A stretch of 64,000 nt of DNA from Escherichia coli (GTDB lineage Bacteria > Pseudomonadota > Gammaproteobacteria > Enterobacterales > Enterobacteriaceae): the NCBI RefSeq assembly GCF_030013595.1, contig NZ_CP122768.1; one strand, 5' to 3'. A program made the position numbers. Below, in pieces: positions 3,001 to 9,000 of this stretch. Within the stretch, counting starts at the first letter, position 1; each line of letters starts with the position of its first letter.

Positions 3001-6000
3001 CGTCGCGGGAAGCTCCAGAGTCAGCGCGTTTGCAGTGCCGCCAGCAACTCCCGCAATATAATGACCACTCTGAAGCTGCGCTATCTGTACGAAATGGTTT
3101 TCCGAACCACGCGTGGCAAAGTTAGCCACAACGTCATTAAGGGACCAACCTTTCGCGGTCGTTCCTTCCTGCCCACGAATGACTTTCAACACATCACCGC
3201 TTACCGATACCAGGTGACAAATCTCAAATGCAGACTCTTTATTATCGGTAAGCGTAATTTTTGCATAGACGCGTTGCCCGTTCGATTTATTTTCAAAATC
3301 GGCAGAAAGCAATTTTGCAAATTTAGCTCCCGTGCCCGGCATCACCGGAATATCAGTCTGAATCGTCGTGATATCGCCAGCCAGTGCTGAAACAACGTTA
3401 TTGCCAAATCCAAGAATCATTTTTGAATCACCGTTGTTGCACAGGAATAAATAAAAGGGAGTTTTACATATTTCTGGTCAATGGCATCTTTCAGAAAATA
3501 GCCTATGCCATCACCATACTCTGGTATCTGAATAGAAAAAACGCTGTCCGATACTGTCACACTCACATCAAAAGTGTGCTGCAACGGCGGGTCTATTCCG
3601 TTTTTTCCATGAATGAACCGCGCCACACGTCGCTTTAACCAGTCAATGCAGAAATGCGAACCGTCAGCCTTATAAAAATTCCACGTTAATATTCGTTTGA
3701 AATAATCATCAGGTACATACGATGCCTGCCCCGGAACGTAATTCCGCATTGCGGCATACGGGATCGTATTGTATTCAATGGTATCGTATGCGCCGCGTGC
3801 AATAGCCTCCTCGGAAACCTGTAGTAAAGGCCTTTCAACGCCATAAATCCCGAGTGCAATCCAGTCCAGCAATTGCCCGGTTATTGATTCCGATGTCCAG
3901 CATGGCAATGCCAGATTGTTGAGTGAATCGAGGTATTCCTGAGCAATTTCATTGTATGCATCAAAGAACGCAACAACATTCGGATCATCTCTGTACTGCA
4001 CAAATGGATAAGCAGGGAGAATTTTCTCAGTCAGATATTGCATACTTGTTGACCTGAACCTGTGATGCCACCGTTGAAAAATAGGAATAGGTATCGCCAT
4101 AAACCAGGCTTGTGTCTTTTGCCGGAGGAACGATATGGCCGTTAATGCCAATGCTCACACTGATTGTTGAGATCAATGTTGCATCAACCAGCAATCTGAC
4201 GGAGCTGGTAAAAATATCCTGGATTCGCAGCAAATTTATCGGGTGACCGACTTCAATAGAATTGATGTAATCAGCAACGTTTTGTTGCACTGCCATAGCA
4301 ATACCCGCCGGATCAACATAATCATCAGACACCGTGTTCCAGGTGATTAGCACCATGACGTTTTGTGATGACGGGATAACGAACGGTACCTGATAAACGT
4401 CCGGCGAAACAGTTATTGAAACCGTGCGTTTTTCCACTGCCGCACCGGATGGATTGCTAACATCGTTGGTCAGTTTCGAAATATCCGGTACAGATTTGTA
4501 AATCGCATAAGCCACATCATACGGATCACCGCCACCAACAACCGCAACCCATTTCCCCAGCGACGACTGCCGGAAAGAAATCAGGTTTTCTCGCACACCG
4601 CTTACTGATTTGAGCATCGCTTTAAAGCAATCCGGTGTTCCCTGCACACCAAACATGCCGGACTCCATGACTTCGGCGCGGTAAGATGCCCACGTCTGCG
4701 CCTCCTGGCCGGGCATTCCTGCGGTAAGGTTCGTGCATTTTACAGGCTGGTCTTTGGGTACTGATGTGATGACCTGCGTCACGGTCCCTTCCGGTACAGC
4801 CCATGAGCCTGACGTAGTGGCCACACAGTAGACTGGCTCAGTCTGCCCGCTTTCCGGTACCACAGTATCGCGGGAAACCGCATACTGGTAGTTGCCGTCA
4901 CCGACAACAAATCCTTTAGGGATACCAAACCCCGGCAACGCCTCAAACACCACGTATACCGCCGTATTTGTACTTAATCCCTTCTGTGCTCCATAAATGT
5001 TTCCGAGTTGCATCAGTAACGGAATATTTGCGCCGTATGGGCTTACGGAGTTAATAAGGTCCACCCGCGCCTGGTCTATTAATGCCAGCGCCCCGACTGC
5101 CGTGCTGGCAAGGTCAGTAATAAGTCCCGCAGGAAGGTTGGCTGTATATCCAGGTACTTTTTCAGCAACTCTGGTGATAAGATTCGCAAGTAAGTCATTG
5201 GGTGGCGTAGGCTGCGCACCCGCACTGGTCATAGTAATTGGTATTTCTGACATAATTAATCTCAAGAGGATTTTATGAAATTTAACTCATTAGGGATTTT
5301 GATTAGCTCACTGCTATTTTCTGGTGTTTCTCATGCAATTGATGCCACAGAGAGAATGAATGACATTCAACAGTTCGGTAAATGGTATTATGCTGAATTT
5401 ACCATGCCTACCACTATGGCTTATCGTATTGGTGTTGAATCCAAATTGCCGCAGGATAAATCAACTTTATTTATTGATATATCACCATTAACTCAATGTG
5501 AGCCCGGTGATGTAACTATCAATCATTTTATTGGATATAAACAAATGGATTTACCACCGTTCCTTCCTGTAAGTTATAAAATCAGCGGACAACAAAAGCA
5601 GGACTCTATAACAACCCCATCTATCAATGAGGGTTACTTGTTCAGTCCTATTAGCTCATTAAAGATTAGTGATTTGTTAAAAGCTAAAGGAAAAGGTAGT
5701 TTTTCTTTTTGGTACACTCCGCCAGCTGAAAGCAAAGAAAAACCACAAAAACTATTCTTCCCATTAGATGGCCTCCCGGAAGCATATAAAGCTGCAATCA
5801 ATTCCTGTAAAGAAAACATGTAAAATCAGGCGGTGATATTTATGAAATTGAAATTTTTATCCCTACTTCTTTTTGTGAGCTTTTCTTCACACTCATCTAA
5901 CATATCAAGAATAATATGTAAGCCATCTAATAGCAACGACACCGCAACCTCCGCAATCTGGCCCCAACCTTACCTTTTAAATGATAAATTATGCTTTAAT

Positions 6001-9000
6001 ATTAGAATTGACTCTGGAAATGCATGTGTTGCCGATGGTAAAAAAACAACGTGGTTTACTGAATCAGTAATTATAATGCAAAACAACGAATCATTAGGCC
6101 GTGATGATACTTGGTTTAGAGTCAATCGCCCAACAATTAATGACCTACGTATAGAATATACTGTCGAGGCATCTAGGGATAAAGTTAATTGGATTCCTCA
6201 ATCTCACGTAACTATTAATCGGATTTCTGGAGAAGCTATTGATTGGGCGATTTATGAACACGGCGGAACGTCTTACCAGTGCCATCTTGAGGGCAAAAAG
6301 ATATGATGCACTATCATTAAATTGACTACGGCATCCAACTCTGGCTACAATCCGAACTGAGGCGTCGAAACCTCTTACAAGCGGTACGCAACCAACCCCG
6401 TCAGTGTTGGATTTTTTATGCCTATTTTTTCAGTGGTTGCATCATGTGCAACCACATCCCCGATCAATGTCGGGAGGGCGACGAATACAACACCCGAAAG
6501 GGGAATAAGTCCGCGGTACTTGTAGCCGTTTCGAACCTCCCGACGCCACTTTGGTTCTTCTTCGAAAAAGATACAAGAGGTCATCATGACAACCCAACTG
6601 ATCCCCGTTTTCAACGGAACTATCTCAAACGAAACCATCCTTCTATGCAACGCTCGCGATCTGCATGCCTTTCTCGAAGTAGGTAAGCGCTTTGCCACTT
6701 GGATCACCGAGCGACTTAGCGAGTATGAATTCGTAGAAAATCAGGACTATGTGATTGCTTCCCAAATTCGGGAAGCAAAAGGCCGGGGAGGCCACAACCG
6801 CAAGGACTACCACCTCACCCTAGATACCGCCAAAGAGCTGGCAATGGTTGAGCGCAACGAAAAAGGCCGCCAGATCCGCCGATACTTCATCGAGTGCGAG
6901 AAGAAGCTGCGCGAAGATACCACCAGCACACAATCCCCTCTGAATGTTGACATCATCATGCGCGTCAGAAACGGCTCAGTTACCCACATTGAGCACCACA
7001 AATCAGGCTCAGTTATCACCACAGAATGGGCAATTCACTTACTACGCAAAAGTGGATGGATTGTCATGCCACGCGATGAACTTCTTAACACGCCACTGGC
7101 CCAACTGATGCCCGAAAGCTTGCCTCAAACCGGAACCTGCGTCCGGTAACTGGTCCCATTAAAAAACACAACATCGATGTTATAGGTGGGGTTCTCTGCC
7201 CCATCTACCTTTGAAATTGCCAGCGATGCAAAATACCCGGCAAACTGTTGCTGAACCATGTTCACATAGTAGTCCGGGTAAATCTGCTGCACGATGCACT
7301 GCTGCGCTGGAATGCCGTAATTCGCGTAAAACGGCGACTCCCCCAACCCCAGCTTTAACGTCTGAATGAGCGTCGTCAGCCAGCCGTAGGAGAAATCACC
7401 GTTGGCGTCAGATTCTACAGCAACCCATTTTTTGTTGCCGTTCGCGTCGGTGACGCGGCCCCATGTTCTCATGCGTCAACCTTTCAAGTAAATTAGGGTA
7501 CCGGTAGCCAGAGCGGTACAAATGATCCACGCTACTGGAGTCAGAATATGCCGAATACCCTGACATACTGCGATTATTCTCGCAGCCTTATCAGCTCCTT
7601 GTGGGGTTGTCTCAGCCTTAAGAATCAGTTCGCTATCCATTTAGAACCTTTATGATCTCTGCGATTCCCGGAAGCGATTTAGCAACTGCAAACCCTCCGA
7701 TAACTATAAGAACTGCATAAAACATTCTTCTCAGAACCGGACTTCTTTCGAGCAATTTTAGAGCTTCCACAATCCAGTCTCCTCCGCTAAAATTAATCAC
7801 GGAAGACCTCCAAACATACGTAATTATCCCTTGCCTTATTCAAGGTCAGAAACAGAAAGCCCCGACTGTTTGCCCAGTCGGGGCTTTCGCTTTATGGATA
7901 GAATTTAAAGTGAAATGAACCGGTATTAACCCGGATTTGGTTTCTTTGACGTGATCGTGCTGTTGCCGCTTTGAACCCCAGTCACATCGTGGCTGTGACC
8001 GCTGGCGCTGACACCTTTTATCATCGCGTCGTTTTGCACAGTAAGCGGGCCAATCAGCGAAGCGGTTGTATCCTTCATCTGGGCTTTGTCCTGGACGATC
8101 GGTCCGTTGAGGTGAATTTTCCCGTTCAGGAAAATATCTTCGGCCTCGAGGTAAACAGCTTTCGACTTTTGCCTGATTTCTTCCGGTGCCACCGTTACCG
8201 AGCTACTGCCGTCCTCTGTTTTGAGGATCGCGCCATCCGGACCGTACAAAACGATCTTTTGCGGATCTTCGTCGGACCAGTCCTTGTTTGCCAGTGGCAC
8301 GAAAAACAGTGGAGTGAGCGACATCGAGTAAGAGAGCGTCGCCATACCGGTTCCCAATCCGGACACACCGCGCAGGGATACATCAGCGGCAATTGTTACT
8401 CCTCGATCGCCCGGCTGTATCGGGTAACGAATATACGGGAATGTGGCGACAGGGATTGTTATCTGCGGAAAGTTGATCCCCTCCGGCAGCATATCAAACT
8501 GAACTGTCACTATCTGCCCGCTGACACCGACAACATGGCAGGGCAATTCACGACCTTTAAGCTCGGCTTGCTGGTTACCAGAACTGGTCATCATCTCCGA
8601 CAGCGTTCGGAGAAACGGTAATTTTTGAGCGTTTGACATTACACCCTCGCCCAGTTCTCAGCATATGCCTCAAATACCGTCACCCAGGCATCGCCATCGG
8701 CTGTCAGATACGAACCAATGTGTCTGACCGATTTCACAAGAAATTTCCCGGTGAACGTGGTCGAATTTTTTGCGATAACGCTGGGTGCCGTTGTATTAGC
8801 CATCACAATCGACGCAGCACCTGAATATAGCCCCTCCGGCAGTTTAACCACATCACCACATCTGATATCGCCCCTCATAGGGCATTTGAAGCTGACGGTA
8901 AACGGCGCTATCCATGTCGGCTGCCCGACCAGTTCATGGGCATGAATTGTTTTTGGCTCACCCCACTTTGCCGATGCGTTATCGTAGATTCGTATTCTGT

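Follow-up and report, generated by a model that had tools for sequence, protein, structure and literature searches.

In the immI block of phage P1 the elements follow one another in the order promoters P1c4 and P2c4, boxes a1 and b1, a terminator, the 77-nt c4 RNA, boxes a2 and b2, icd, and ant1/ant2. A small RNA made from or opposite the leader likewise controls an antirepressor operon in immA of N15 (CA RNA and antA/antB/antC), in the satellite P4 (CI RNA), and in immI of P22 (sar RNA). The mechanisms differ: N15 and P4 rely on premature termination, and P22 uses a true antisense transcript. The AntA family takes its name from genes of N15. Here we describe a 1.87-kb block between two baseplate genes of an Escherichia coli prophage, found in a 64,000-nt stretch of contig NZ_CP122768.1 (assembly GCF_030013595.1), the whole of which we call the window. 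The block carries two genes for secreted proteins (c1 and c2) and one for an AntA-type antirepressor (ant), all antisense to the late operon. The leader of ant contains an 84-nt RNA of the Rfam family sRNA-Xcc1 (RF02221) and shows the same order of elements as P1 immI, with similar spacings.

We favor, at a probability of roughly 0.6, the explanation that the block is a composite island of accessory genes that occupies a recombination hot spot between the W-position gene and J of a Rac-SA53-like prophage. It would consist of an RNA-controlled antirepressor unit (6322-7149) and a periplasmic-protein unit (5275-6306), and the late operon would read through both. The observation made in the initial annotation is confirmed and its interpretation partly supported: the island is a moron hot spot plus an immI-like antirepressor module. 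The gene layout proposed there is borne out by the coordinates:

4027 to 5253, minus strand: J, baseplate J-like gene, 408 amino acids, start codon CAT at 5251-5253, first late-operon gene downstream of the slot
5275 to 5823, plus strand: c1, secreted protein of 182 amino acids with an IalB-like fold, signal peptide ending SHA ahead of ID
5842 to 6306, plus strand: c2, secreted all-beta protein of 154 amino acids from an orphan family, four invariant cysteines
6586 to 7149, plus strand: ant, 187 amino acids, AntA-type N-terminal domain and slot-specific C-terminal domain
7125 to 7472, minus strand: W-position gene, 115 amino acids, in the synteny V-like / W-position gene / J / I

The leader of ant contains the following elements, the first of which stands at its head:

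6322 to 6351, plus strand: promoter-like TTGACT-18-TACAAT, 10/12 consensus matches
6359 to 6381, plus strand: upstream target boxes, a hairpin GAGG-CGUCGAAA-CCUC with the constant box UCGAAA (6365-6370), followed by the allele-specific box UUACAAG (6375-6381)
6392 to 6417, plus strand: short hairpin and U-run (CCAAC-N9-GTTGG, then ATTTTTT), probable leader attenuator
6433 to 6455, plus strand: perfect palindrome with 9-bp arms, GTGGTTGCA-TCATG-TGCAACCAC
6469 to 6552, plus strand: structured RNA of 84 nt, RF02221 (sRNA-Xcc1), 34 nt upstream of the ant ATG
6561 to 6580, plus strand: downstream target boxes UUCGAAA (6561-6567) and UACAAG (6572-6577), over the ribosome binding site (RBS) of ant

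The RNA scores 78.0 bits (E 8e-14) over positions 1-87 of the RF02221 model, whose gathering score is 53. Its closing stem precedes GCCA (6545-6548), its first hairpin has a GNRA loop that varies among alleles (GAAA, GUAA, GCAA), and the loop of its second hairpin is complementary to the RBS region of ant. In an alignment of 13 alleles, 88% of cells pair in the named structure and 10 pairs are changed on both sides; the covariation score of the leader lies above all 500 shuffles. RNAalifold and a single-sequence minimum-energy fold of the whole leader reproduced the Rfam structure only partly, and support for the structure was drawn from pair counts on the named Rfam structure together with duplex tests.

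The loop of the second hairpin reads CUUGUA in the window (6519-6524) and is complementary both to the upstream box UUACAAG and to the downstream box UACAAG, the latter of which overlaps the Shine-Dalgarno sequence of ant (AAGAGG, 6575-6580). A constant junction of the RNA, UUUCGAA, pairs with the UCGAAA that stands beside each variable box. Loop, upstream box, and downstream box form a matching triplet that is particular to each of seven allele classes, and all 4 loop-box pairs are altered on both sides across alleles. When duplexes were computed between all loops and all boxes, the cognate downstream box was the best in its row for 7/7 classes, and the cognate upstream box was best or joint best for 7/7. 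The same pattern holds in 51 viral loci, where duplexes of the loop with the RBS average -19.4 kcal/mol for cognate and -12.3 for non-cognate combinations, and those with the upstream region -27.5 versus -19.9 kcal/mol; 0/5000 permutations equaled either difference, in tests that are somewhat inflated by sequence relatedness.

The product of ant is an antirepressor-like protein, as had been proposed, matching Pfam AntA (PF08346) over residues 22-91 at 94.1 bits against a cut-off of 27 (E 8e-27) and PHROG 14211, anti-repressor, at E 5e-74. Some 230 nt 5' of ant are conserved regardless of the neighboring cargo, and homology between the window and other ant alleles begins at about 6353. Other alleles have TTTACA-17-TATGAT at the place corresponding to the promoter; the window allele differs from these and is closer to consensus. 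Most ant alleles (e.g., L011, L004) additionally carry a perfect, operator-like inverted repeat, GCGCCCAAT-N8-ATTGGGCGC, over the -10 region. The hairpin at 6392-6417 is below the detection limit of the scanning tool, yet it is present in all ant alleles with 95% of cells paired. It is the weak terminator of the initial annotation, which we read as a probable attenuator of the ant leader. The terminator and the palindrome had been taken to close the cargo unit, a role that we reject for both because they lie within the ant-conserved block whatever the cargo; they belong to the ant leader, in a layout like that of P1 c4/immI.

An RF02221 RNA precedes every ant-type gene tested, with 9 further alleles and contexts besides that of the window, and is also found before a KilA-N-type gene in the same slot (L062) and before a Bro-N gene in a Salmonella relative. 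The C-terminal 65 amino acids of Ant resemble the KilA-N-type protein of the L062 slot (E 6e-5). Viral contigs were scanned for the core motif of the RNA, which gave 55 distinct downstream open reading frames (ORFs), most of them starting 80-105 nt past the core. Their N-terminal Pfam families (39 family matches) are KilA-N (11), Bro-N (11), Rha (6), P22_AR_N (4), ORF6N (4), and AntA (3). This distribution leads us to a tentative generalization, to which we would give somewhat less than even odds: the sRNA-Xcc1 family may be an immunity RNA widespread among phages, with the same function as P1 c4, that sits in the leader and masks the RBS of antirepressor genes of every N-terminal class (AntA, KilA-N, Bro-N, Rha, ORF6N, P22_AR) through an allele-specific loop, and that here would lie antisense in a late operon transcribed by read-through. 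If so, sRNA-Xcc1 loops would define many RNA immunity types, and late transcripts would contain sequence perfectly complementary to the RNA and to ant, which could couple late transcription to the Ant switch. Passages of the literature describe sRNA-Xcc1 as an integron-borne, trans-acting Xanthomonas small RNA under HrpG/HrpX control and note a copy upstream of an ORF6N gene in an APSE phage; as far as these passages on the family extend, they hold no description of it as an antirepressor leader.

Further copies of the RNA were seen in two settings. The Shiga toxin (Stx) phage TL-2011c (L103) has tandem copies at 3108-3197 and 3647-3732, one preceding a 94-amino-acid ORF and the other an antirepressor, whose promoter, leader, and N-terminal half share about 79% identity with window positions 6322-6934. 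A 3.1-kb slot allele (L054) has two copies, at 3942-4027 and 4155-4240, and beside them an antisense gene with a ProQ/FinO domain (2193-2561 in gap coordinates; Pfam E 3.5e-15), which may encode a dedicated RNA chaperone for the antisense system.

The second line of evidence comes from the W-J junction itself. Relatives of the W-position protein were collected from viral and genome collections (91 loci), and V, W, J, I, ant, c1, and c2 were mapped in them; slot counts rest on the 92 loci where W and J could both be mapped. The distance between W and J ranges from 10 to 3135 nt. Antisense cargo alone occupies the slot in 38 loci and sense cargo alone in 31, of which 20 are a single near-identical allele with an HSDR_N domain; 10 loci hold cargo in both orientations and 13 are empty, with a few loci mis-sorted through spurious ORFs because the states were called by a greedy ORF tally. 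About 25 distinct contents were found, and about 15 distinct antisense configurations. A signal peptide, a lipobox, or membrane segments characterize most cargo proteins; cytoplasmic exceptions include the HSDR_N protein, a ProQ/FinO protein, and a YafO-like toxin together with its partner. The W-J junction is thus a hypervariable accessory-gene slot in the Rac-SA53-like prophage lineage.

Within the slot, ant is present in 35/92 loci, always at the W end and always antisense, and in 33 of them with the same coordinates of the 25-nt overlap. In the window this convergent overlap is as the initial annotation had it, with the ant stop codon at 7147-7149 and that of the W-position gene at 7125-7127. 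By presence and absence the slot contents behave as morons, with 13 empty loci against about 25 contents at one fixed position. By base composition c1 and c2 do so as well, at a G+C of 0.34-0.39 versus about 0.5 on both flanks, and the ant module does not deviate. That the three plus-strand genes are accessory is therefore upheld, since they vary among relatives and c1 and c2 are both AT-rich, as claimed, and equipped with signal peptides.

Taken together, these features suggest the following scheme. A constitutive-looking promoter would transcribe the leader with its boxes, attenuator, hairpin, 84-nt RNA, and the boxes on the ant RBS. In the lysogen the RNA would pair with the RBS region of ant and Ant would stay untranslated, the RNA acting either within its own transcript or, after processing, on other transcripts. 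Its allele-specific loop would set the RNA immunity type, and Ant would be made only when RNA control is outrun. The c1 and c2 proteins would be periplasmic proteins expressed from the prophage in the lysogen, and the late operon would reach J and the fiber genes by terminator-insensitive read-through across the island, with the antisense orientation preventing cargo promoters from driving J in the lysogen.

Some derivatives would escape this control. In a common derivative allele the start codon of c2 is fused to ant at about codon 26, with loss of c2 and the whole RNA leader; this allele occurs in L002, L007, L008, L010, L035, L037, and phage vB_Apl-pPE4 (L225, 3943-4431). The truncated Ant of this allele, as read from the fusion point, would be co-expressed with c1 and free of RNA control. 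The L225 genome (PP818812.1) was deposited as that of an Actinobacillus pleuropneumoniae phage and is 94% identical to the tail region of this E. coli prophage; the attribution to an Actinobacillus host looks doubtful.

The N-termini of c1 (MKFNSLGILISSLLFSGVSHA) and c2 (MKLKFLSLLLFVSFSSHS) are signal-peptide-like, in agreement with the secretion predicted initially, and the low model confidence over these residues fits this. The c1 family comprises 13 clusters, all named ones from Enterobacterales, with two invariant cysteines and ratios of nonsynonymous to synonymous substitution rates (dN/dS) of 0.10-0.14. Its only fold match is the solved structure of IalB (PDB 3dtd), at 12% identity; no Pfam family matched c1 at E up to 0.1, and thus none for IalB, and a search of the c1 profile against the PDB found no IalB chain. 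IalB is alphaproteobacterial and chromosomal, in contrast to the prophage-borne c1. For c2 we found 10 close clusters with four invariant cysteines and no fold match; a profile search across 1.84 billion proteins yielded only 38 clusters, formed at 50% identity, and no larger family. c2 also occurs in other prophage contexts and is a more mobile orphan than c1. The PHROGs families matched by the two proteins are of unknown function, and in PADLOC neither protein matched a known exclusion or defense protein. Judged from targeting and context, the most likely role of c1 and c2 would be an envelope modification that benefits the lysogen, for example by excluding incoming phages. They could instead be host-fitness or virulence factors of lysogenic conversion, comparable to Bor and Lom, as the fold match to an invasion-associated envelope protein, the occurrence of the closest carriers of the cassette among pig and calf enterotoxigenic and Shiga toxin-producing E. 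coli strains, and the lack of a PADLOC match would suggest. We consider this somewhat unlikely, since c1 is tied to the baseplate and fiber module across genera and not to a pathotype, and since the many unrelated envelope proteins in the slot fit an arms race better, neither of which is decisive.

The initial annotation held that W and J are normally adjacent and that a foreign cassette had been inserted antisense into the once-intact baseplate operon, where transcription of the cargo in the lysogen would collide with that of the late operon upon induction, as a cost or as a regulatory device. Adjacency is real in some relatives, where the two genes lie 48-64 nt apart, and it accounts for only the 13/92 empty loci. 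These loci, the AT-richness of c1 and c2, and the apparent lack of a promoter for J speak for an insertion with interference. So does the 3' end of ant, where a scan of 7100-7180 found no plus-strand terminator; plus-strand transcripts would consequently enter the W-position gene in antisense and continue up to the following element:

7855 to 7888, either strand: strong 14-bp hairpin between the V-like and W-position genes, found by terminator scan

Read as minus-strand RNA, this hairpin folds at -31.1 kcal/mol (z = -6.7) and resembles a terminator; read as plus-strand RNA, it folds at -29.1 kcal/mol (z = -5.1) and possibly stops transcripts that leave ant. We nevertheless regard insertion with interference as improbable. 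The antisense arrangement, which had been called unusual, is the most frequent state of the slot (38 antisense-only and 10 mixed loci of 92). Nor does the insertion appear recent: c1 is always the antisense gene nearest J, is the sole occupant of the slot in Buttiauxella, and diverges in step with J (about 50% versus 58% identity in Salmonella and Buttiauxella), which indicates an old and tolerated resident of the slot. Two deposited phage genomes hold the same antisense arrangement, and its age, frequency, and presence in these genomes argue that it is not costly.

The junctions also differ between the states of the slot, the divergent one being as follows:

5254 to 5274, between the divergent genes: spacer of 21 nt with the c1 RBS (AAGAGG, plus strand) and the J RBS (minus strand) back to back

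The 21-nt spacing between the c1 ATG at 5275 and the J start at 5253 had been noted before and stands. Comparison of junctions showed that a back-to-back RBS spacer of 21-22 nt is common to unrelated antisense cargo families, with the form cat-aaaatcctcttgagattaatt-ATG in alleles of the E. coli clade and cat-aaattatccttaggggagaat-ATG in an Erwinia/Pantoea-like clade; it is kept as a scar in an almost empty Yersinia locus (L085). Exchange of cargo appears to be anchored on the shared spacer and sometimes on the region coding for the signal peptide. Empty and sense-cargo alleles have a strong intrinsic terminator directly before J, consisting of AACCCGC-ttcg-GCGGG and a run of T, followed by GGAG and the J start codon, and antisense alleles have none. 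It lies about 30 nt upstream of J in L064, L065, L070 (about 6370-6395), L088, and others. This distribution can be understood if sense cargo with its own promoter would drive J in the lysogen and so needs a terminator, whereas antisense cargo needs none.

A terminator between W and J inside what is presumably a single late operon implies either antitermination or attenuation of J and the fiber genes, and the presence of such terminators in relatives suggests that late transcription is insensitive to them. Consistent with the earlier claim that J lacks a promoter of its own, no sigma-70-like site was found on the minus strand in 4800-8200, where promoters of other kinds are possible, and read-through from upstream is accordingly the simplest route to J and the fiber genes. 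Any promoter of c1 must fall within the 5' end of J, where one candidate was read directly from the sequence:

5248 to 5256, plus strand: candidate extended -10 element for c1-c2, TGACATAAT, overlapping the J start codon

A further alternative concerns the leader, which might be a cis-only element, that is, a folded 5' untranslated region with an attenuator that masks the ant RBS until opened by a signal, with neither a trans-acting RNA nor an immunity type. The loop-box pairings are possible within one transcript, and the whole leader folds better than shuffled sequences (z = -2.7). We think this unlikely, since passages of the literature report RF02221 members as discrete small RNAs in Xanthomonas and Xylella, since the processed c4 RNA of P1 likewise shows duplicate boxes on either side and GCCA after its closing stem, and since a purely cis element would have no evident need for seven allele-specific loops.

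The palindrome at 6433-6455 was described correctly in the initial annotation: it is perfect and the sole copy in the window, with about 0.01 such matches expected by chance. As RNA it folds at -15.3 kcal/mol (z = -5.3), and across alleles 3/9 of its pairs have changes in both arms. Of 12 alleles, 9 have a U-G pair at one position and 10 a mismatch at another, which an RNA tolerates and a DNA dyad does not; the palindrome is therefore most likely an RNA hairpin of the ant leader. A search of the whole window with up to 3 mismatches for a further copy, as for a LexA or repressor operator, found one site only. That the palindrome is instead a DNA operator through which the prophage repressor or a Mnt/Arc-like protein blocks ant transcription, the RNA being secondary, is quite doubtful: although the dyad is perfect and unique in the window, its symmetric arm changes would also fit co-evolution with a protein, and other alleles have their separate inverted repeat over the -10 region, it lies about 80 nt downstream of the promoter and past the attenuator, has no second copy in the immunity region, and is imperfect as DNA in most alleles that keep the RNA hairpin.

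Several observations weigh against the composite island as we describe it. For the RNA, loop-box pairing in the window allele is weaker than in any other of the seven (-13.8 kcal/mol), and the allele's upstream-box value ties with that of one non-cognate allele; trans action and processing are suggested solely by the closing stem and GCCA. No match to C4 (RF01695) or c4-a1b1 (RF03163) was found in 6300-6620 at E up to 10, and the 34-nt gap between the RNA and ant contains no icd-like ORF. For the periplasmic unit, a promoter scan found no full sigma-70 match upstream of c1 and no c1-c2 promoter, PADLOC returned nothing for c1, c2, ant, or three other slot proteins, and the molecular function of IalB is itself unknown. 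The Q-like antiterminator is a putative assignment by position alone.

If the composite island is accepted, an apparent oddity becomes a defined and reusable feature, a cargo slot between two baseplate genes. Its states can be recognized, with a terminator and RBS marking the empty slot and the back-to-back spacer the antisense one, which can help in annotating the accessory genes of the lineage. Small envelope proteins of about 15 unrelated families, the baseplate-tied protein with the IalB fold among them, become candidates for a part in lysogenic conversion or in the exclusion of phages. Of the by-products, the most interesting is the connection of antirepressor control with the sRNA-Xcc1 family: RF02221, with 84-nt members in many phages, gains a testable function as an apparent gate on antirepressor translation, and the loop sequence predicts which prophages share RNA immunity.

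The island lies within a complete Rac-type prophage that is bounded by ompN/uspF and ttcA and contains racR/ydaS/ydaT, recE/recT, and intR; its late genes are all on the minus strand, downstream of the gene in the Q position, an arrangement that favors read-through. Over the cassette, to which the comparison was confined, the sequence is 100% identical to that of the E. coli O141:H4 strain P13-6 chromosome, and gene coordinates around it correspond to those of P13-6. The identity of J is supported by Pfam Baseplate_J (E 8e-8), PHROG 6 baseplate wedge (E 4e-38), and the RefSeq label baseplate J/gp47 family. For the gene previously called W-like, the position and size of 115 amino acids fit W and the family identity was not borne out, as there is no Pfam match above cut-off and no PDB sequence match, and PHROG 7986 is of unknown function. 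The c2 gene was likewise substantiated, with its ATG at 5842 in place of the 5845 implied before; a longer ORF from a GTG at 5833 has no backing from homologs.

A second variable stretch (7473-7925) separates the V-like gene from the W-position gene. Its length is 453 nt in the window; annotated E. coli relatives have about 250-310 nt, and the Erwinia/Pantoea-like clade has about 5 nt. Besides the strong hairpin at 7855-7888, it contains two small minus-strand ORFs (7476-7640 and 7633-7800) that are unannotated and have hydrophobic segments. Weak Rfam matches to sar and rimP at 7824-7947 were dismissed as merely a common GC-rich hairpin. A second gene labeled as having a phage antirepressor N-terminal domain lies at about 26320-26889 on the minus strand, in the lysis cassette and co-oriented with the late genes, with no sRNA-Xcc1 match upstream. 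Rfam matches above the gathering score elsewhere in the window are the RalA antitoxin RNA beside ralR (44617-44795), a sok-like RNA in the prophage early region (31891-32064), and RNA-OUT, the IS10-type antisense RNA, in the flanking chromosome (51791-51860). A gene at about 21127-22563 on the minus strand carries the RefSeq label anti-CBASS protein Acb1 family; a 277-amino-acid gene separates it from the large terminase, roughly the position expected for the portal gene, and the label may be a mis-annotation.

Compared with described systems, the slot resembles lambda bor and lom, the HK97 morons, and the P2 hot spots, which are likewise accessory genes at fixed positions with deviant composition and mostly targeted to the envelope; unlike typical morons, the antisense cargo here was found without a flanking terminator. 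Lambda bor is opposite in orientation to the late genes, and ant of P22 sits within the late gene region. The leader shares with immI an RNA on the same strand and complementary boxes on both sides, the downstream set lying over the RBS. In the P1 leader, c4-a1b1 and C4 score above the Rfam threshold and isrK below it (35.1 bits versus 50, E 6e-6), and a terminator spanned by this sub-threshold isrK match stands at the place of the window attenuator; none of the C4, c4-a1b1, and isrK models matches the window leader. Because the C4-type matches and icd are both missing, the resemblance to P1 immI is one of layout, and the module is not a member of the C4 family. Its boxes comprise one constant and one variable element, in contrast to the a and b pair of P1, and P1 late genes have their own late promoters, unlike the read-through proposed here. 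In P1 the sim genes and c4 diverge; here c1 and c2 precede the ant module on its own strand. In P1, too, the immI block is opposite in strand to the flanking tail and baseplate genes and lies beside simABC, which encodes the superimmunity proteins SimA-C.

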